From Bacteroidaceae bacterium (GTDB lineage Bacteria; Bacteroidota; Bacteroidia; Bacteroidales; Bacteroidaceae), in contig JAKSJD010000006.1 in assembly GCA_024398435.1 (NCBI GenBank), forward strand, positions 28,276-92,275: a stretch of DNA of 64,000 bases. Reading direction: 5' to 3'. Below are positions 1-23,521 of this stretch, in pieces (the first letter of the stretch is position 1; each line of letters opens with the position of its first letter). Under the pieces are notes generated by a model. The model made no database searches, was not told the origin of the DNA, and saw only the letters and a list, made by a program, of their open reading frames with translations. The position numbers were made by a program, and so were the translations under genes.

Positions 1-1
1 C

Positions 2-343
2 GAACCTGAGTGTACGTCATTCCTTGCTTCACTTCCTGCAAGCTATACTTCCCTGAAATGTATCGACGGTAAAATCGGTGAATATATTGTTATTCTTCGT
101 ACCGACCAAGATGGTAACTACTATCTTGGAGGAGAAGCCAATTGGGATGGTCACGACGTAACTGTCGACTTCAGTTTCCTACCTTCAGGAACTTATGAAG
201 CAGAACTGTTCTATGATGGTATAAATGCCGACCATGTTGCAACCGACTATGCTGTACGAAAACAAACCGTAACAGCAGCAACACGTCTCCCAATCCACAT
301 GGCTTCAGGCGGAGGCTTCATAATGAAGATACTGAAGAAGTAG
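2..343 (+). CDS. 3' end (113 codons) of a GH97-type glycoside hydrolase (SusB-like alpha-glucosidase/alpha-galactosidase); the 5' part lies outside the window
   Basis: Frame is open from base 2 to TAG at 341-343. Translation ...GKIGEYIVILRTDQDGNYYLGGEANWDGHDVTVDFSFLPSGTYEAELFYDGINADHVATDYAVRKQTV...MASGGGFIMKILKK matches my memory of the GH97 C-terminal domain. Absent from the ORF track because it has no start in the window. Confidence 0.6.
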   Translation, partial: EPECTSFLASLPASYTSLKCIDGKIGEYIVILRTDQDGNYYLGGEANWDGHDVTVDFSFLPSGTYEAELFYDGINADHVATDYAVRKQTVTAATRLPIHMASGGGFIMKILKK

Positions 344-372
344 AATCACGAATCACAAAAATCACATTTTTG
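344..372. repeat. Left arm of a 28/29-nt inverted repeat (AATCACGAATCACAAAAATCACATTTTTG), built of AAATCAC-like heptamers; partner at 3312-3340
   Basis: 351-372 is the exact reverse complement of 3312-3333 (22/22). The match extends to 344-372 versus 3312-3340 with one mismatch. The arm starts directly after the GH97 stop codon. Confidence 0.85.
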
Positions 373-412
373 TTTTTGTTCAAAAAAATTTCTTTTATTT
401 ATTAATTAATTA

Positions 413-562
413 TTGAAACTTTTTGAACTTAATATATATTTAAGATAAAAGACCTTTCATCAGGTCTGATAAAAAAAAATTTTCACTTCATTTTCATTTT
501 ACTCTTGAAAGTTTTTGAAAGAAATATATATTAAACAAAAAGACCTCTAAGTAGGTCGATAA
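413..562. repeat. Two copies of a ~58-60 nt unit spaced 92 bp apart (413-472 and 505-562), each ending in a small GACCT/AGGTC hairpin, inside a very AT-rich leader
   Basis: Copy 1 is TTGAAACTTTTTGAACTTAATATATATTTAAGATAAAAGACCTTTCATCAGGTCTGATAA. Copy 2 is TTGAAAGTTTTTGAAAGAAATATATATTAAACAAAAAGACCTCTAAGTAGGTCGATAA. Aligned by eye. Confidence 0.8.
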
Positions 563-584
563 TTAAATAAAATTATTATAAATT

Positions 585-1004
585 ATGAAAAAATTATTAA
601 ATGAACTCGCAGCGAATAAGTTCTTTGCTGCCAACGAATGTCTCGCAGCAGACATGATGAACTTGGCCACTCAGTACGAAGGTGGCAACACTTACTACTC
701 TCAATCACTTGACATTATCTATGCTGACGGCACTTGTATGCAGTATCGTATGTCGGTGACCAATCCTTACGTCAGCATTATGCGCGACGGCAAGTACGTC
801 ACATCGGAGTCGTACGTCACTCTCCCCGAGGCAGTCGCAGCCACACTCTTGGACGACGCTAAGATTACGTCTATCCACGCCCTTGAGTATAGTTACGTGC
901 CAGAGTTCTCTGAGTATTACGGCGAGTTGCCACTACACACGCAGTATAGTGAGTATCATATGGAGTTCAACGAAAATAATGAAGTTAAAAGCCATGAGGA
1001 CTAA
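585..1004 (+). CDS. Hypothetical 139-aa protein, no recognisable family; translationally coupled to the next gene
   Basis: ORF track entry. Its TAA stop (1002-1004) overlaps the ATG (1004-1006) of the downstream gene as TAATG. It shares the elevated GC content of that gene. Confidence 0.55.
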   Translation: MKKLLNELAANKFFAANECLAADMMNLATQYEGGNTYYSQSLDIIYADGTCMQYRMSVTNPYVSIMRDGKYVTSESYVTLPEAVAATLLDDAKITSIHALEYSYVPEFSEYYGELPLHTQYSEYHMEFNENNEVKSHED

Positions 1005-3232
1005 TGCATTTCGACATTTTCAAGACTATCAGTGGGAAGGGCGAGCGCTGCACGCGCGAACTCTTCTACACACTCATCGACAGCGACGCAGTCAAGAATA
1101 CTGCAGCAGCAATCGCCAAGGGCGACTTAACAAAGAAGCGCAACTTACCTGCCGTTACTTGGCAAGCGTGGTTCGTCGACGGCAAGCGCAAGAACGCTAA
1201 TGCACATCATTCGGCATTGTACATGTTCGACGAAGACCATATTCAAGGAGATGTACGCGAGTTCTACGCTAAGGCACTTGGAGGCAGAACAGAATCCGAA
1301 CTCGGTATCGTCGCTGTTCACGTTACGCCCTCTACCCACGGTCTTCGCATCGTGGCCAAGTGCAGGGAAGGCTTGGCAACTATCGCAGACAATCAGAAGT
1401 GGCTCGCCGAGCAGTTGGGCATATCCACCTACGACGACGTCTGCAAGGACTTCGCAAGATTGAGTTTCCTCGTCCCTCGCTCCTATTTCATATATATAGA
1501 TGAGTCCATCTTCAGCGACGAGCCAGAGGATGCAGTGTACTTAGAGACAAAAAGCCTCCAAGCCCCTTCTAAATCTGCCCGAGGGCAGACTGCGGAAAAT
1601 AGTTCTGCCCCTATAGGGGAAGCGGAGAAGGGGTCCTATCAGGGTATCTCAATTCGGGACATCGCGCGTCGTTGGCTGCAAGCCAACGGTGGCGAACCGA
1701 CAGAAGGCGACCGCAACTCCCAACTCTTCCGACTTGCATGCGAACTTCGTTATATCTGCGAATTCAACGGTGAGACTCTTCTTGCCAATCTCCCCCACTA
1801 TGGACTTGCGAAGAGCGAGATGCTCAACATCGTCAAGTCGGCTCTCCATCAGAAGCGCAACAAGTCGATACCTAAGTCTCTTGCACGCGTCATCAGCGAC
1901 ATGAAGCGAGAATTGAAGGGCAAGGACGAAGAAGCCTATCGACCTGCACAGGCTCTCGACCATCTATTGAATTCGCACGAGTGCATTGACAAGAAGTACC
2001 TTCCTCCTATCTTCCGCGAATATGCCGATATTATGCCTCGCGACTTCAAGACGGCTGCCGTCATGAGCCTTCTTCCAATGTTGGGAACTGTAGGCAGCAA
2101 GATTCGCGCCAAGTACTGGGACAACGCAGTACAGTCACCATCAATCCTTGTCGAAGTCGAAGCACCTCAGGCAAGTGGTAAGAGTCTGATTCGCCGAATG
2201 TGCGACGACGTGATGCAATGCATAGAACGCATGGACAACATTGCCCGAGAGCGAGAAGAAGAGTATCGCGACCAACTCCGCAAGGCGAAGAACGCAGAGA
2301 AGCAGCCAGAGCACGAATCGTTCTTAATTAGATTGGTTCCGCCCACAACAAGCGTCAGTATGCTTCTCCAACGAATCAAGGACGCCAAGGGAGTGCACAT
2401 CTTCTCCTTCACGGACGAGATGCAGATTGTCACAGATGCGATGAAGCGTGGCTCGTTCGGCGACCTCCGCGCCTTAATGCGCAATGCCTTCGACAATGCC
2501 AAATTCGGACAGGACTACAAAGGCGACAGCGCAACTCGCTGCAACGTGCCAATCTTCTATAACACTCTTCACTGCGGCACCCCTAAGGTGTACAGCACAT
2601 ACTACAACAACACAGAAGACGGCACCGTCACTCGCGTCATCTTCTGCAGTCTCCCCGACCAATTCGGCAAGGACATGCCAATAATGAAGGATATGACTGC
2701 CAAGCAGCGTCTCCGTGTGGACGAAGCCATCGCCCGACTCAACAGCGTAACCATGAATGATGATGAGATTCGAGAAGAAGAGACATGGCTCACCGACTTC
2801 GACTTCGTGAACCGTTGGGCGAAGAAGTGGTGCAAAGCGAAACAAAAACTCGCCGTAGAATTTGGCAATAGGGACATTGATACATTCATGCGAAGGTCAG
2901 CAGTGGTAGGTTTCAGAGCAGCAATGCTCGCATGGTTCTTGTGGGATAGCCACAACAAGGATACTCAGGACAAGACCATAGCCTTCGCCGAATGGGTAGC
3001 AGAGTATATGCTCTGGAGATTATGCAGCCGCTATAGCATAGAGCAGACGTCGAATGAAGTCCCTCACTACCGCGTTTGGAAGGAGTTGGACAGCGAATTC
3101 ACCACAGCAGACGTTGAGACAGTCTGCTCGGATTGGAGCATTAAAACTCCTGTACGCAACATCCTTTACCAATGGCGCACCAAGAACAAAATAGAAGAAA
3201 TCGCGAAGAACTCATACCGAAAGAAGCAGTAA
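1004..3232 (+). CDS. Primase-polymerase / PriCT / P-loop helicase-like protein (VirE-N / BT4734-like N-terminus plus DUF3987-like NTPase), 742 aa
   Basis: Acidic MFDEDH motif (aa 74-79, nt 1223-1240) and PSTHGLR (aa 109-115) resemble the AEP primase-polymerase DxD and sGxGxH motifs. GDRNSQLFRLACELRY (aa 235-250) resembles the PriCT motif. Walker A is APQASGKS (nt 2162-2185) and Walker B-like is HIFSFTDEM (nt 2396-2422). Assigned from memory of these families; no search was run. Confidence 0.65.
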   Translation: MHFDIFKTISGKGERCTRELFYTLIDSDAVKNTAAAIAKGDLTKKRNLPAVTWQAWFVDGKRKNANAHHSALYMFDEDHIQGDVREFYAKALGGRTESELGIVAVHVTPSTHGLRIVAKCREGLATIADNQKWLAEQLGISTYDDVCKDFARLSFLVPRSYFIYIDESIFSDEPEDAVYLETKSLQAPSKSARGQTAENSSAPIGEAEKGSYQGISIRDIARRWLQANGGEPTEGDRNSQLFRLACELRYICEFNGETLLANLPHYGLAKSEMLNIVKSALHQKRNKSIPKSLARVISDMKRELKGKDEEAYRPAQALDHLLNSHECIDKKYLPPIFREYADIMPRDFKTAAVMSLLPMLGTVGSKIRAKYWDNAVQSPSILVEVEAPQASGKSLIRRMCDDVMQCIERMDNIAREREEEYRDQLRKAKNAEKQPEHESFLIRLVPPTTSVSMLLQRIKDAKGVHIFSFTDEMQIVTDAMKRGSFGDLRALMRNAFDNAKFGQDYKGDSATRCNVPIFYNTLHCGTPKVYSTYYNNTEDGTVTRVIFCSLPDQFGKDMPIMKDMTAKQRLRVDEAIARLNSVTMNDDEIREEETWLTDFDFVNRWAKKWCKAKQKLAVEFGNRDIDTFMRRSAVVGFRAAMLAWFLWDSHNKDTQDKTIAFAEWVAEYMLWRLCSRYSIEQTSNEVPHYRVWKELDSEFTTADVETVCSDWSIKTPVRNILYQWRTKNKIEEIAKNSYRKKQ

Positions 3233-3239
3233 CAACATT

Positions 3240-3266
3240 GAATGGCGGCCAACTTGGTCGCCATTC
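3240..3266 (+). terminator. Hairpin terminator after the 742-aa gene
   Basis: GAATGGCG-GCCAACTTGGT-CGCCATTC gives an 8-bp perfect stem, followed by TTCTTTTAT. Confidence 0.6.
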
Positions 3267-3311
3267 TTCTTTTATACTCTTATCACTCTTGCACTCTTTA
3301 TCACTTTCATG

Positions 3312-3340
3312 CAAAAATGTGATTTTTGTGATTTGTGATT
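3312..3340. repeat. Right arm of the 28/29-nt inverted repeat (reverse complement reads AATCACAAATCACAAAAATCACATTTTTG)
   Basis: See the left arm at 344-372. The heptamer series continues to 3348 (GTGATTT-type repeats). Confidence 0.85.
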
Positions 3341-3372
3341 TTTGATTTATCCCCTTCTGACACACAAAAAAA

Positions 3373-3405
3373 GATGGCAACCACGAGAATGTGATTGCCA
3401 CCATC
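3373..3405 (-). terminator. Imperfect hairpin plus T-run terminator for ppdK
   Basis: On the minus strand, GATGGTGGCAATCAC-ATTCTC-GTGGTTGCCATC is followed by TTTTTTTT (complement of 3365-3372). The stem has a bulge. Confidence 0.5.
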
Positions 3406-3455
3406 ATATACATTATATTATTATACGCGTGTGCGCGTATATAATAGGCAAACAA

Positions 3456-6179
3456 TTATTCAGCCTCTACTGCTGCCTGCGCGGCTGCAAGACGTGCGAT
3501 AGGAACACGGAATGGAGAACAACTTGCATAGTTGAGACCAATCTTAGCGCAGAACTTAACAGAAGAAGGCTCACCACCATGCTCACCACAGATACCTGTG
3601 CGGAGTTCTGGACGGATTGCACGACCCTTTTCTACTGCCATCTTAATGAGTTGGCCAACACCCTTTTGGTCGAGTACCTGGAATGGGTCAACCTTAAGAA
3701 TCTTCTTCTCAAGATATACAGGGAGGAAGCTTGCGATGTCGTCGCGGCTGTAACCGAATGTCATCTGAGTAAGGTCGTTAGTACCGAATGAGAAGTACTG
3801 AGCTTCTGTAGCAATACGGTCGGCTGTGAGGGCTGCACGTGGAATCTCAATCATTGTACCGATTTCGAATTCAACTTCAATTCCGTATTCAGCAAATACC
3901 TGCTTAGCAACCTTCTGAATGATTTCCTTCTGCTGCTTGAGCTCATAGAGTGTACCGATAAGAGGTACCATGATTTCTGGCATTGGAGTCAATCCTTCCT
4001 GCTTGAGTTCGCATGCTGCACTGAGGATAGCGCGTGTCTGCATTGCTGTAATCTCTGGGAATGTGATACCAAGACGGCAACCACGGTGACCGAGCATTGG
4101 GTTGTTTTCAGCAAGAGAAGCAACTCGCTTCTGAATCTCCTTAATGTCAACGTTCATTTCCTTTGCCATAGTTTCCTGACCAGCCTGATCGTGTGGTACG
4201 AACTCGTGGAGAGGTGGGTCGAGCAAACGGATATTGACTGGACATCCATCCATAGCCTTGAGGATTCCCTTGAAGTCAGCCTTCTGATAAGGAAGCAACT
4301 TTTCGAGAGCCTTTTCACGTCCTTCTACTGTGTCAGAAAGAATCATTTCGCGCATTGCGATAATCTTCTTATCTTCGAAGAACATATGTTCTGTACGAGT
4401 AAGACCAATACCCTTAGCACCAAATTCGCGAGCAAGAGCTGCATCCTTTGGAGTATCAGCATTTGTACGTACCTGAAGCTTTGTATACTTGTCGCAAAGG
4501 TCCATCAACTGCTTGAAGTCGCCACTGAGTTCAGCTGCCTTTGTAGGAACTTCACCAGCATATACCTGACCAGTTGAACCATTAAGAGAGATGTAGTCAC
4601 CTTCCTTATATGTCACACCTTCGATTTCGACTGTACGAGCCTTATAGTCAACATTGATTGCACCAGCACCACTGACACAGCACTTACCCATACCACGGGC
4701 AACAACTGCTGCATGAGAAGTCATACCGCCACGAGCTGTGAGGATACCTTCTGCACTTGCCATACCTGCGAGGTCTTCTGGAGATGTTTCGATACGAACC
4801 ATAACAACCTTATGACCGTCGTTGTGCCACTGTTCTGCGTCGTCAGCAAAGAATACAATCTGACCACATGCTGCACCTGGAGAAGCAGGAAGACCCTGAG
4901 TGATAACCTTTGCACTCTTGAGAGCGAGCTTATCAAATACTGGGTGGAGCAATTCATCAAGCTTCTGAGGTTCACAACGCATGATAGCAGTCTTTTCGTC
5001 GATAAGACCTTCCTTGAGGAGATCCATAGCAATCTTAACCATTGCAGTACCTGTACGCTTACCATTACGAGTCTGGAGGAACCAGAGCTTGCCTTCCTGT
5101 ACAGTGAACTCCATATCCTGCATATCATGATAGTGGTTTTCGAGCTTAGTCTGAAGGTCGTCGAGCTGCTTGTAGATTTCTGGCATAGCCTCTTCCATTG
5201 AAGGATACTTGGCAACGCGCTCTTCTTCTGAAATACCAGCACGTTCTGCCCAACGCTGACTACCAATCTTAGTAATCTGCTGAGGAGTGCGGATACCTGC
5301 TACAACGTCTTCACCCTGTGCATTTACAAGATATTCACCATTGAAGAGGTTTTCACCATTACCAGCATCGCGGCTGAAGCAAACACCTGTTGCACTTGTG
5401 TCGCCCATGTTGCCGAATACCATTGCCATAACTGAAACTGCAGTTCCCCATTCGTCAGGAATTCCTTCCATCTTACGATAGAGAATAGCACGTTCGTTCA
5501 TCCAGCTGCGGAATACAGCACAGATAGCACCCCAAAGCTGTACGATAGGATCTTCAGGGAATTCGCTTCCTGTCTGTTCCTTGATAGCAGCCTTGAAGAG
5601 ACCGACGAGCTTCTGAAGTGATTCAACGCTGAGGTCCTTATCAAGAACAACGCCCTGTTCCTTCTTTACTGCTTCGATAATCTTCTCGAATGGGTCGATA
5701 TCGTCCTTGTTTACTGGCTTCATACCAAGAACAACGTCACCGTACATCTGTACGAAACGGCGATATGAGTCGTAAACGAAGTGAGGATTATTTGTCTTTG
5801 CTACCATGCCTTCTGCAACCTTATCGTTCAAACCGAGGTTGAGGATTGTATCCATCATACCTGGCATTGAAGCACGTGCACCTGAACGAACACTGACGAG
5901 AAGAGGATTTGTAGCATCACCGAATTTGCAATTCATCAAATTCTCAATGTGCTTTACTGCAGCTGTTACATCTTCATTGAGAAGTTCCATAATTTTTTCC
6001 TGACCTACTTCGTAATACTCATTACATGTGTCAGTTGTGATAGTGAAACCTGGAGGAACAGGAACTCCGATGAGGTTCATTTCTGCGAGGTTTGCACCTT
6101 TACCGCCAAGCAATTCTCTCATGTTGGCGTTACCTTCAGCTTGTCCGTTGCCGAAAGTGTAAACTCTTTTCTGATTCAT
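3456..6179 (-). CDS. ppdK: Pyruvate, phosphate dikinase
   Basis: 907 aa, full-length PPDK-like sequence: MNQKRVYTFGNG...GGKGANLAEM, phospho-His region GGMTSHAAVVARGMG, and a C-terminal PEP-utilising TIM barrel ending ...FSFGTNDLTQ...CGEHGG. Confidence 0.97.
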   Translation of the reverse strand: MNQKRVYTFGNGQAEGNANMRELLGGKGANLAEMNLIGVPVPPGFTITTDTCNEYYEVGQEKIMELLNEDVTAAVKHIENLMNCKFGDATNPLLVSVRSGARASMPGMMDTILNLGLNDKVAEGMVAKTNNPHFVYDSYRRFVQMYGDVVLGMKPVNKDDIDPFEKIIEAVKKEQGVVLDKDLSVESLQKLVGLFKAAIKEQTGSEFPEDPIVQLWGAICAVFRSWMNERAILYRKMEGIPDEWGTAVSVMAMVFGNMGDTSATGVCFSRDAGNGENLFNGEYLVNAQGEDVVAGIRTPQQITKIGSQRWAERAGISEEERVAKYPSMEEAMPEIYKQLDDLQTKLENHYHDMQDMEFTVQEGKLWFLQTRNGKRTGTAMVKIAMDLLKEGLIDEKTAIMRCEPQKLDELLHPVFDKLALKSAKVITQGLPASPGAACGQIVFFADDAEQWHNDGHKVVMVRIETSPEDLAGMASAEGILTARGGMTSHAAVVARGMGKCCVSGAGAINVDYKARTVEIEGVTYKEGDYISLNGSTGQVYAGEVPTKAAELSGDFKQLMDLCDKYTKLQVRTNADTPKDAALAREFGAKGIGLTRTEHMFFEDKKIIAMREMILSDTVEGREKALEKLLPYQKADFKGILKAMDGCPVNIRLLDPPLHEFVPHDQAGQETMAKEMNVDIKEIQKRVASLAENNPMLGHRGCRLGITFPEITAMQTRAILSAACELKQEGLTPMPEIMVPLIGTLYELKQQKEIIQKVAKQVFAEYGIEVEFEIGTMIEIPRAALTADRIATEAQYFSFGTNDLTQMTFGYSRDDIASFLPVYLEKKILKVDPFQVLDQKGVGQLIKMAVEKGRAIRPELRTGICGEHGGEPSSVKFCAKIGLNYASCSPFRVPIARLAAAQAAVEAE

Positions 6180-7990: not shown

Positions 7991-8722
7991 TTATTCTTCG
8001 TCGGGTTCGAGATTATCGAGGTCGATAATACGGAGTTCAAATGCTCGTGTGACAAGACGAGGTACATTCACTCTATCGCGTTCGCCTGAAGGGAACAGAC
8101 GGTTAATGAGTTCGGCCTGACGCTTTTCGAGCGACTTCGTACCGAAAGGCATTGAACGAAGGTTTGCAATCATGTCCTTCGTATATCCAAGAGCCAAATG
8201 GCGGAGGAATATCTCATCATATTCGTCGATATCATACTTCACGAAAGCTTCCTGACGACGATATTCGTTCAGAACGGAAGCCTTGAAACGCTTCACGATT
8301 TTCTTCAGTATTGGTTGGTTGAACACGTATTTCTTGCCACTCATCACACTTTGAATATCTCCTGACGTAAGCAATTCCCCACTCTTAAGTATGATTCCGT
8401 CGGCACCTGCATCAAGGGCATCCACCCATAGCTTCTCGTTAAGGATTTCGCCTGTAAATATAAGTACACGAGTTGGATATTTCTTCTCTCGCAACTTACG
8501 GCAGATTTCAACTCCGACTGTCGTTGAACCTCCAAGTCCCAAATCGAGCAATACGAGATCTGGAACTTCGTCTTCGATAAGTTCCCAGAAGTCGTCTTCC
8601 GTCTGTGCCGTACCTATTATCTTTGCCTGAGGTATTTCGTTGCGGAATATCTCTTCCGTTCCCTTAAGCTCAAGCATTACATCTTCAACGATGATTACAC
8701 TGAAATTTTCTTTTGTTGCCAT
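7991..8722 (-). CDS. Response regulator (receiver domain plus divergent LuxR/NarL-like C-terminal HTH)
   Basis: Receiver motifs VIIVEDV...DLVLLDLGL...LIFTG...ILKS. I prefer the ATG at 8722 (MATKENF..., 243 aa). The ORF-track start at 8752 is a TTG that would overlap the kinase stop by 4 nt. Confidence 0.8.
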   Translation of the reverse strand: MATKENFSVIIVEDVMLELKGTEEIFRNEIPQAKIIGTAQTEDDFWELIEDEVPDLVLLDLGLGGSTTVGVEICRKLREKKYPTRVLIFTGEILNEKLWVDALDAGADGIILKSGELLTSGDIQSVMSGKKYVFNQPILKKIVKRFKASVLNEYRRQEAFVKYDIDEYDEIFLRHLALGYTKDMIANLRSMPFGTKSLEKRQAELINRLFPSGERDRVNVPRLVTRAFELRIIDLDNLEPDEE

Positions 8723-11700: not shown

Positions 11701-12702
11701 ATCCGGATTGATATCGAATGGCATGAGGAATTCTTCATCGTCGGGATAGAGGCGCTTATGCTGCATATTGATGAATTCCAAAGCCTTTGTGGCTGTATCG
11801 AGCGCTGTTGTATATTCTTTGTTTATGACGTAATAGTCGGAAATTGTAAGGTAAGTCAGCGCTGTACTATAGAGCGAACCATAGTCGCGATACAATTGCA
11901 GGGCTTGTTGGGCAAGGCCGAGCAGCATTCCGTTGTCGCGCAACGAATCTGCTACTTGCTCGTGGAGAAGGGCGTTGGCAGCCATTCTCTGCAACGAACT
12001 TGCCTGCAAATACTTGAGTCCTGTCTTGGTCGACATAGTGAGAGCTCGTTCGTATTCGCCGGTGAGTGTACAGAATCGGGCAAACTGAGCCGTATCTCGG
12101 TCGAACCATTGCTTATTGCGTGATACAACCTGCAACTGTTCTCTTCCTTTCGATTCCTGGAGAATGTAGTTGTAATAGATGGAAAGAGAAAGGTAGTATT
12201 CGCTCTTGGCGTAGTTGAGGAGTATTTTCTGACGTTCGGTAAGCTTGGTTGCGTCCTCATCGATTCGCTTCAATCTTGCCTCAGCATCATTCTTATAGTC
12301 ATAGAGGTCCTTGTTCTGACCATTGTTTTGACACACCTTAATCATTCCGATATCCGCAATTGCCTTGAGGAGGTAATTGCCCGTCAGGTCGTAGGCTTTA
12401 AGATAAAGTTCGCTGGATTTGTCATAATCCATGCGCATATACTGGACGAATGCCTGATGGAGCATAGCTTCTGACTTTCCGTCAGCATAGTCTTCGGAAT
12501 TGTCGTAGGCTAAGTCGGCATAATATTTAGCACTGTCGAGCGCCACATAATACATGCGATACGACTTCATATTGAGTGAATCGACCAATTGGCACATTGC
12601 ATCGCGGCTTCCGTTCCCACATGAACTGAAGCCTATAAAGATGGCTGCGACGAGCATAACTGCTATCGACCACCTGACGTATGTACACAATTTACCAATC
12701 AT
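8749..12702 (-). CDS. Two-module membrane sensor histidine kinase, 1317 aa (DUF5112-like kinase module fused to a DUF5113-like H-box module)
   Basis: Lipoprotein-like N-terminus with a TPR-like periplasmic region (aa 26-410), then a TM segment (411-432). HATPase boxes: NARKYT (nt 10837-10854), DTGRGL, GFGFGL. Second signal-like hydrophobic stretch KKVLLILLTLLPLGLNAQ (aa 731-748), second periplasmic domain, TM segment (887-908). H-box-like TIKHETMYYPNRI (nt 9385-9423) and a C-terminal ATPase-like fold without Gly boxes. Confidence 0.8.
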   Translation of the reverse strand: MIGKLCTYVRWSIAVMLVAAIFIGFSSCGNGSRDAMCQLVDSLNMKSYRMYYVALDSAKYYADLAYDNSEDYADGKSEAMLHQAFVQYMRMDYDKSSELYLKAYDLTGNYLLKAIADIGMIKVCQNNGQNKDLYDYKNDAEARLKRIDEDATKLTERQKILLNYAKSEYYLSLSIYYNYILQESKGREQLQVVSRNKQWFDRDTAQFARFCTLTGEYERALTMSTKTGLKYLQASSLQRMAANALLHEQVADSLRDNGMLLGLAQQALQLYRDYGSLYSTALTYLTISDYYVINKEYTTALDTATKALEFINMQHKRLYPDDEEFLMPFDINPDTISTEMRWMKQGRTNCSWNWISTVREKLSIIYSCMNLKPQSDYNRNIYLDILEATRQDKAMEQRLETLQREEKTQNILIIAIAVFAILVMAAIFLFIKHLKRRSKDKYNEDLKRADQMYKDWMKGNEAIYSSMSEEEKRIESETYIHEQHISENKQSYIDKCTSLSMVYSITPFLDRALNELDKLNNVDEPLNIKKERIEYLNELFDKINSYNEILSHWIKVRQGSVKLNIENFELKPLFDTLSKNRNTFSGKNIKLNIGDVDCVVKADRALTLFMMNTLLDNARKYTPNGGQVSLDANATDEYVEISVSDTGRGLSQDDINTIVNEKVYDSNTIGQATSDDDLKHNKGFGFGLMNCKGIIDKYKKTNAIFSVCTFNVESEIGKGSRFYFRLPKGVKKVLLILLTLLPLGLNAQEIDPAHEQWMQLAEYYTDKTYYANVDGLYNQALLYADSAIMCMNECYLLEYPEGNQLISLVGSVYTELDWWQQGVDIDYNILLVLRNEASVAALALRLWSVYEYNNEFYTRLYILTSHDYTVEQFCNATNKANITRQTVLAIFIVLAVIGLILFLILYYRINILPTFSMRQLMEFNKSLFAQHPRDLAEFVYNEVNNIVYVDGIAVGVTNDSGQLNIKTSKKCQLKEFMEDAVFRSVGENSNLSLNEGKLKTYLLVASNVNAESETTEQETVGAIAMLLHNTVSANDEKVLQMIAQQLATYIYYTDTKVESQLTGLHLKEDIKFRAEKEENNIHIQNMVLDNCLSTIKHETMYYPNRIKQILTDGVETENGINVDKIRDLNELTIYYKDVFTLLSSCAARQLENVMFKRKMVNVKELLKYAEKTMKRLNRKHDTDVECFTECNDDNMAVSGDVDMLHYLFDSLLAALMECEDDGEVRILAEYKDEFVKFSLMDLRQKRSNEELSQLFYPDNLVYDEDNDKLVGAQFMVARQIVREHDEYGGHRGCRINALLSADCFTIEFMLWAGDNKS

Positions 12703-23390: not shown

Positions 23391-23521
23391 CGAAAAAAAA
23401 CAATTTGATAAAGTGAGAAAATGTATATTCTTTCATTCAAGTTCCTACATACATTCTTCTTTATGAATTCTCACATATAATCACATTTTTGAGTCACTCT
23501 ATCTTTATTGTTTTATGTACG

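Follow-up and report, generated by a model that had tools for sequence, protein, structure and literature searches.

The 64,000-nucleotide (nt) stretch analysed here, referred to below as the window, comes from a Bacteroidaceae bacterium (assembly GCA_024398435.1, contig JAKSJD010000006.1, positions 28,276 to 92,275). Near its start, an inverted repeat encloses two genes, coding for a protein of 139 amino acids (aa) and a 742-aa primase-helicase, in the slot between convergent genes for a GH97 glycoside hydrolase and pyruvate phosphate dikinase (ppdK). By analogy with known systems, the arms of this repeat are probably iterons of a chromosomal Rep-ori (replication initiator and origin) module that has no integrase, and that resembles the PriRep-ori module of Staphylococcus aureus pathogenicity islands (SaPIs) or the alpha protein of P4 with its ori and crr sites. 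The arms would be two of an original four arrays of the word AATCAC + N within this replication-initiator module.

The repeat, as given in the preliminary description, was confirmed. Positions 351-372 are the exact reverse complement of 3312-3333 (22/22), and 344-372 matches 3312-3340 at 28/29 positions. The 29-mer was found twice at up to 3 mismatches, and was not found in any of 100 dinucleotide-preserving shuffles. Both arms are A+T-rich, are separated by 2.9 kb, and contain three AATCAC units, spaced by 7 and 9 nt; the array word is 7 nt, AATCAC + N. There are four copies of the arm word genome-wide, namely the two arms and solo copies on contigs C5 and C3, and the word is present in 2/27 species of the genus. 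The description also listed related words at 23481 and 31465, with the caveat that the arms may belong to a word family. The caveat was apt and both words exist, but they are weak, and the true arm word has only the four copies. The GH97 stop codon abuts the left array, and no target-site duplication is present at the arms in the window, where the flanks are GAAGTAG before the left arm and TTTGATT after the right. On contig C5 (noted at G000 C5:15250-15440, equivalent to L010:2750-2940), the approximately 1.1 kb from the solo arm to the next gene lacks any open reading frame (ORF) exceeding about 90 aa, and part of it looks structured. In metagenomes the 22-mer was matched once (L077), in a Helitron_like_N/DUF6570 gene of eukaryotic type; the match was judged to be due to chance and low complexity.

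The slot is covered by three strains of one species only: the window strain, a sister strain (L033) found by an exact match to the ppdK protein, and a strain (L085) found via the closest homologue of the primase-helicase (85% identity). In all three strains the module is at the identical chromosomal site between GH97 and ppdK. The L085 allele is fuller than that in the window. Following the GH97 stop codon, it has array1 (AATCACGAATCACAATAATCACATTTTTGCA), the terminator, gene and promoter of a HU-HIG protein on the opposite strand, array2 (CAAAAATGTGATTTGTGATTTGTGATTT), an A+T core, array3 (ACAATCACAAAAATCACATTTTG), the leader with its tandem promoters, the 139-codon gene (ORF139), the primase-helicase, a terminator, array4, and the terminator of ppdK. 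The arrays are at 4487-4517, 5275-5303, 5347-5369 and 8318-8346 of L085. The core between array2 and array3 is about 40 nt long (about 5310-5346) and consists of A and T only; the two arrays are inverted around it, and face in the opposite way to the arm pair of the window.

Comparison of the junctions shows how the three alleles are related. On the GH97 side, the window is 97.7% identical to L085 and 95.8% identical to the sister strain, up to base 372. At the left junction of the window, the context of array1 on the GH97 side is joined to the context of array3 on the leader side, as expected from a deletion between these two direct repeats. The window is what remains after this array1 × array3 deletion, with HU-HIG, array2 and the A+T core gone, and the inverted repeat seen in it is a hybrid array1/3 facing array4. 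The sister strain has flanks that are 96-98% identical to those of the window, a left arm that matches at 29/29 positions, and a variant right arm with different unit spacing. Its cargo is 746 bp long, and has a single HU-HIG gene, on the opposite strand, and no primase-helicase. Its homology to the window flank ends at base 372. A BLAST alignment resumes at 3297, which is 15 nt before the right arm, but this was rejected as the boundary because the likeness at 3297-3311 is a chance similarity of two contexts, and on alignment the true junction is inside the right array. Here the context and spacing of array2 are joined to the context of array4, and the sister strain is the remainder after a reciprocal-type deletion, array2 × array4, which kept only HU-HIG. 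A 7-nt AAAAAAT target duplication and a retained palindrome centre were considered for this strain and were dropped, as L085 shows that the junction is array2 × array4. The context of the right array is identical in L085 and L086. Exact matches to the GH97, CysS, lipase, HU-HIG and ORF139 proteins gave no additional strain covering the slot, and a search for related loci on the genome contigs using the 742-aa protein found nothing. An empty site is undefinable in other species, since GH97 and ppdK are not neighbours elsewhere in the genus.

The DNA between the arms is accessory, in agreement with the preliminary description, and varies between strains: three strains of one species have three different contents, and synonymous divergence (dS) is far above that of the flanks. 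In the comparison to the L085 allele, ORF139 and the first 500 primase-helicase codons give dS values of 0.5-1.0, as against 0.08 for GH97. The leader (96-98% identical to that of L085), the last 240 codons of the primase-helicase, and the arms have close to flank-level identity. A diverged centre between ends of near-flank identity indicates that, in one lineage, a diverged allele has taken the place of the central part of the cassette. The presumed DNA-reading end of the protein was retained, together with its presumed sites.

The spot counts of G+C in the preliminary description (34/60, 24/60 and 30/60) are exact, and the full analysis of composition that it recommended did find a deviation. 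G+C content over positions 1001-3000 is 52%, as against 44.4% for the assembly (2.3 Mb), and the gene for the 742-aa protein is at the 96th percentile of 1316 ORFs for both G+C and G+C at third codon positions (GC3). ORF139 is unremarkable in total G+C (53rd percentile), with GC3 at the 87th percentile. The view of this DNA as accessory and compositionally odd is retained, but the two mechanisms proposed for it (terminal inverted repeats of a small mobile element, and the halves of a terminator hairpin) are unsupported, as discussed below.

The primase-helicase is a multidomain protein. It starts with a BT4734-type archaeo-eukaryotic primase (AEP) domain at approximately aa 1-170, which is followed by a disordered linker (aa 183-207), a helical region, an MCM-like AAA+ ATPase (DUF3987) with its Walker A motif at aa 387-394, and a C-terminal winged helix at aa 689-740 (nt 3068-3223), for which the AlphaFold2 (AF2) model gives the order helix-strand-helix-helix-strand-strand. 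The model has a predicted local distance difference test score (pLDDT) of 85.8, and the N-terminal alpha/beta domain and the P-loop core are visible in it. The AEP residues D76, D78, T108, S110 (in the TPSTHG block) and D144 are invariant across 48 homologues, as are G392-K393 of Walker A. Foldseek matches the protein to eukaryotic MCM2-7, archaeal MCM, and the Cch helicase of the staphylococcal cassette chromosome SCCmec (5dgk), with E values from 8e-6 to 5e-4. No family was found in PHROGs or NCBIfam for either the primase-helicase or ORF139, Pfam has no match to ORF139, and sequence and profile searches of the PDB found nothing. Apart from itself, ORF139 has only 3 homologues in a set of 5.8 billion proteins. 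AF2 models ORF139 with confidence (pLDDT 86), and a fold search against the PDB gave no match below E = 0.01. Values of dN/dS against the L085 allele are around 0.2 (0.25 for ORF139 and 0.19 for the primase-helicase), indicating that both genes are under purifying selection.

Similar arrangements recur around other genes of this kind. Inverted pairs of at least 22 nt bracket 5/6 of the primase/VapE genes in the genome of the window strain, compared to 2.2% of all genes (hypergeometric P = 2e-8), and each bracketed locus in the genome has its own array word. At L088, which has a homologue of 71% identity, HU-HIG and an array are followed by an A+T-rich core in which a few G and C occur, then by an inverted array, an ORF of 137 aa, the primase-helicase and finally a distal array. 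The array words here are AATGAC/AATCAC, and the putative recognition helix is altered. L090 (58% identity) has the same order with GTGTCCAAA arrays. Here 36-nt arms flank the A+T core, a distal arm (40 nt, 97%) follows the operon, and the operon also has DUF3127 and DUF5675 genes. A paralogue on contig C12, the third in the genome, has a 47-nt arm, 100% identical, which begins at the stop codon, and its partner arm is upstream, adjoining 26-nt perfect inverted CTGCAACG arrays around a (TA)n-rich core of 230 nt. At G022:C31 a 34-nt arm is located 6 nt past the stop codon. HU-HIG is divergent to the primase-helicase operon around the origin-like unit in L085, L088 and L090, and in G022 the genes are neighbours that share a strand. 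G022 is from another species of the genus, in which L062 (G022:C56:47000-60000) has a BT4734-type primase-helicase directly followed by HU-HIG, about 5 kb downstream of ppdK, with an inverted array pair upstream (11786-11977) and one copy of the arm within the primase gene (8159-8191).

Across about 20 homologues in the genus, arrays are found at or directly after the stop codon, and their words shift with the predicted recognition helix: VQQML is paired with GTCATTA, VHQML with GACTGTCA, and TLRSW with GTTGCAG. The same behaviour is seen in three paralogous genes encoding VapE+DUF3874 proteins. These have about 96% nt identity over approximately the first 1,000 nt and 88-90% protein identity overall, and they diverge in the last 55 or so aa, which form the DUF3874 domain, and in their arm words. 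The homology between these paralogues runs past the left arm. On the basis of these comparisons, the array word covaries with the C-terminal domain of the protein that it encloses. Two of the VapE+DUF3874 genes adjoin genes that are Dnd-like or restriction-modification-like, as judged from N-terminal sequence only. The second VapE cassette (C12:175376-177386) and its arms are missing from the sister strain.

The function of the arrays is suggested by comparison to staphylococcal Rep proteins. SaPI Reps are MCM-like self-loading helicases, sometimes fused to a primase, and through a C-terminal winged helix they recognise iterons of five or six nucleotides, which flank an A+T-rich centre and are oppositely oriented on its two sides (PMC9371898). 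Because of the match to these proteins, we infer that the C-terminal winged helix of the primase-helicase would bind the array words as iterons. The array2/A+T core/array3 unit would then be an origin-like loading site, and the distal arrays would be auxiliary sites, comparable to those of SaPI Rep-ori or P4 alpha ori/crr. In the window strain, as a result of the recombination between array1 and array3, ORF139 and the primase-helicase are enclosed by array1/3 and array4 in inverted orientation. Without its origin core, the window copy is probably replication-dead even with an intact protein. If the model is right, this copy is an origin-less remnant and its protein could act only on sites elsewhere; there is no complete AATCAC core elsewhere in the genome of the window strain.

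The likeness to the fused PriRep of SaPI5, and more widely to SaPIs and phage-inducible chromosomal islands (PICIs), is in the fusion of a primase to an MCM-like AAA+ helicase that ends in a winged helix, and in the iterons by the rep gene around an A+T-rich centre. The second of these features is present in L085, L090, L088 and the C12 paralogue, and absent from the window, which has lost the A+T core and one array. There are further differences. No integrase, attachment (att) sites, relaxase, master repressor, or packaging or interference genes are present in or near the slot, and there is no known helper phage. The origin-like unit is upstream of the operon, between it and the divergent HU-HIG gene. 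Both cassettes are bracketed by additional distal arrays, and the primase belongs to the BT4734-type AEP family.

P4 alpha is a single polypeptide containing primase, helicase and a C-terminal origin-binding domain, and the octamer iterons of P4 are in two places, at ori and at the distal crr, which are kilobases apart and partly inverted. The window protein similarly consists of primase, helicase and a C-terminal domain, but it differs from P4 alpha in its types of primase and helicase, which in P4 are DnaG/Toprim-type and SF3-like. P4 itself is a complete satellite that has an integrase, integrates, and is packaged. The Cch/Cch2 proteins of SCCmec are also MCM-like helicases on a chromosomally integrated element, and one of them (5dgk) is a structural match to the model, with a low TM-score (0.23-0.31) because the query is multi-domain. 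SCCmec moves by means of Ccr serine recombinases and defined att sites, and we know of no iteron arrays that bracket its cch gene. The feature is best regarded as a Rep-ori (iteron) type of module that is chromosomal, lacks an integrase, has HU-HIG as its partner, and is reduced here by array-mediated deletion.

Several observations weigh against the interpretation of the arms as iterons of a Rep-ori module. The array/core/array unit is missing from the window, which therefore does not have the defining layout of an origin. The sister strain keeps the arms with no primase-helicase in the slot, and arms can thus persist in the absence of the protein presumed to read them. Intergenic regions, including those of housekeeping genes, commonly contain heptamer and octamer arrays of other words, and arrays as such are not specific to cassettes. 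The paralogue on contig C1 (61% identical) has a direct 12-mer array upstream and no mirrored pair. In principle, L085 could be a recombinant rather than the ancestor, and the arrays could be autoregulation operators and not origin sites.

This last point can be broadened, such that the arrays are operators or insulators, bound by the winged helix of the primase-helicase or by HU-HIG, which regulate or silence the divergent operons and have no role in replication. We consider this unlikely. The arrays do adjoin the promoters and terminators of both operons, and heptamer arrays occur beside promoter boxes genome-wide. The primase-helicase family is also absent from plasmids (0 found among 72,556) and nearly so from phages (two weak matches among 50,697 phage records), which is unexpected for a working replicon. 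However, inverted arrays with an A+T-only core, next to a winged-helix helicase, match known Rep-ori modules; purifying selection has kept the AEP and Walker motifs intact, favouring an enzymatic use; and the distal array is past the operon terminator, where it has no obvious role as an operator.

It is distinctly improbable that the arms are the terminal inverted repeats (TIRs) of a small non-autonomous element that a transposase encoded at another locus would mobilise in trans, as in the first mechanism of the preliminary description. The 28/29 inverted pair encloses accessory, G+C-odd DNA, and solo copies of the arm are found on contigs C5 and C3, but the fuller allele in L085 has four arrays, two of which are internal, and the left arm of the window is an array1/array3 recombinant. 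The module is at one site in all three strains, there is no target-site duplication at the junctions, and no transposase or integrase gene was found by Pfam and gene context in the slot or among the neighbouring genes examined. Mobility might be read into the loss of one VapE cassette plus its arms from the sister strain, and into units with inverted arms and an A+T core but no gene, which for other words have identical copies (the CTGCAACG arms are 100% identical at four loci). In having inverted arms around short non-coding cores, and near-identical copies for some words, these resemble miniature inverted-repeat transposable elements (MITEs). They differ in that the arm words are locus-specific and track the C-terminal domain, which is the behaviour of cognate sites and not of the ends used by one shared transposase, and in that arms also occur internally.

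A role for the arms as sites for a site-specific recombinase, making the slot a cassette-exchange or invertible locus, is less credible still. In its favour, the breakpoints of the polymorphism are inside the arrays in both deletion variants. Both events are nevertheless simple deletions between direct repeats of 20-30 nt, for which short-homology recombination or slippage suffices; both cassettes have the same orientation across the three strains; and no recombinase gene was seen in the slot or its neighbours. Finally, the second mechanism of the preliminary description, in which the arms are halves of an ancestral bidirectional terminator hairpin with the cassette inserted into its loop, is scarcely tenable: the arms do sit between convergent genes, there is no other obvious GH97 terminator ahead of the left arm, and the left arm of L033 is followed by CAAAAAAT, which initially resembled a retained palindrome centre with a 7-nt duplication, but the four-array allele of L085 accounts for both two-arm states, the adjacent array2/array3 pair faces the opposite way around the A+T core, the left arm is recombinant, the operon is served by a G+C-rich terminator of its own and so is ppdK, the arms are rich in A+T and lie 2.9 kb apart instead of in a contiguous stem-loop, and the same architecture is found with unrelated words at other primase/VapE genes.

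The features of the slot and its flanks are listed in the table, together with the VapE+DUF3874 genes. No Rfam families were found in positions 1-4000 of the window.

Table. Features of the GH97-ppdK slot and its flanks (window coordinates unless a contig is given)
Feature	Position	Strand	Description
GH97 glycoside hydrolase, 3' end	2..343	+	Pfam GH97_C, E = 8e-25; conserved chromosomal flank
Left array	344..372	+	AATCACG AATCACA AAAATCAC ATTTTTG; three AATCAC units; recombinant of array1 (GH97-proximal part) and array3 (part continuing into leader), from the inverted-repeat pair, junction alignment and L085 allele
A+T-rich leader	373..584	+	17.5% G+C; 92-nt tandem duplication
ORF139	585..1004	+	139 aa; stop overlaps start of next gene (TAATG)
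Primase-helicase	1004..3232	+	742 aa; Pfam PF08800 (BT4734-like_N), PF13148 (DUF3987)
G+C-rich dispersed repeat	1600..1637	+	In frame in disordered linker of primase-helicase; 95-97% matches at C30:82849 and C3:69445
Intrinsic terminator of ORF139/primase-helicase operon	3240..3266	+	12-bp stem, T-rich tail; conserved in L085 and L088
Second word family ACTCTTATCACTCTTGCACTCTTTATCACTTT	3270..3310	.	Matches at C27:34767, C23:235884, C23:241446
Right array (array4)	3312..3340	-	Three AATCAC units; 80 nt past primase-helicase stop; from the inverted-repeat pair and junction alignment
Intrinsic terminator of ppdK	3373..3402	-	12-bp stem followed by T7
ppdK (pyruvate phosphate dikinase)	3456..6179	-	Pfam PPDK_N, PEP-utilizers, PEP-utilizers_C; conserved chromosomal flank
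VapE+DUF3874 genes	G000 C12:99392-101243, C12:175376-177386, C23:235599-237612		46-69-nt mirrored arms; words CCTTCAG, AACCTGTCAC, CCTTCACA

The two copies of the leader duplication have promoter-like sites at 413-440 and 505-532, each of which is followed by a GACCT hairpin (450-467 and 542-557). The dispersed repeat in the primase-helicase linker coincides with the worst-aligned and most variable stretch in comparison to the L085 allele (48% identity, 16 gaps). The second word family is akin to the outer arms, AAGAGTTATAAGAGTGCAAAAGTTATAAAAGT, that bracket the primase cassette on contig C12. The neighbours of the slot are GH97, DUF6055, ppdK, an SGNH lipase and a two-component system, and the ppdK protein is identical in the sister strain. 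In two independent samples of the four-array strain (L085:8494-9273 and L086:2560-3179), homology to ppdK stops about 30 nt into its 3' coding end, and beyond the break there are at least 780 nt of A+T-rich sequence that is unmatched in the window. Possible causes are an insertion into ppdK, a rearrangement of the gene, or an assembly artefact shared by the two samples. At the 3' ends of ppdK from 15 species of the genus (L014-L028), the contig ends less than 1 kb downstream of the gene in about 8/15, which suggests that repeated sequence is present there in many species.

Other arrays in the genome are of several kinds. Some inverted pairs simply stem from promoter modules that recur around housekeeping genes. 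Such modules, about 105 nt long and with divergent promoters, are found for example at C23:52353-52457, 88268-88356 and 90891-90994 and at C29:122778-122868; in each of them a pair of TAnnTTTG boxes encloses two heptamer arrays, (ATGCAGG)n and (AATTCTC)n, and long apparent inverted repeats result. A multi-copy unit containing no gene is present at C3:21316-21841, C12:149650-149958, C12:211417-211747 and C32:59656-59991. It has 26-nt perfect inverted arms (CTGCAACGCTGCAACGCGCAACGCTT) and a nearly pure (TA)n-like core of 230-260 nt, and is adjoined by an array of units of about 20 nt (TTCTCGCGGTTCGG); one copy abuts the C12 primase cassette. Homologous units with inverted arms and an A+T palindrome are found upstream of two HU-HIG paralogues, at C1:232095-232281 and C2:83117-83314. 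Their arm words differ (AAACTTTAG versus AAAGTCTTG/AAAGTTTAG), but the arms within each copy match, which implies that the arms change together and the interior is conserved.

The finding bears on several questions. HU-HIG proteins are a Bacteroidetes family that has been reported as almost wholly without conserved operonic linkages (PMC5499826), and the family here gains a recurrent partner, the primase-helicase operon. What look like the ends of a mobile element in the window are the leftover of recombination between the putative iteron arrays, and the comparison of three strains shows that short arrays of putative binding sites act as hot spots at which whole genes are added or removed. More speculatively, and as a possibility that we put forward with considerable doubt, Prevotella chromosomes may contain an undescribed class of integrase-less initiator cassettes. 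These would encode an AEP primase fused to an MCM-like helicase, or else an NTPase of VapE type, in many cases paired with a divergent HU-HIG gene. They would have private iterons, the array word and the winged helix forming a swappable specificity module. The arrays would have two roles, as sites for loading and as substrates for recombination, the latter leading to gain and loss of cassettes and to gene-less miniatures, and in situ amplification of neighbouring genes would be possible. The initiator-like family is located in chromosomes: if it fires, it would represent a new way to amplify or maintain chromosomal segments, and if it does not, its conservation needs another explanation. If the proposal is true, such cassettes may not move as plasmids or phages do, and may instead amplify nearby DNA in situ, for example the defence genes beside other copies.

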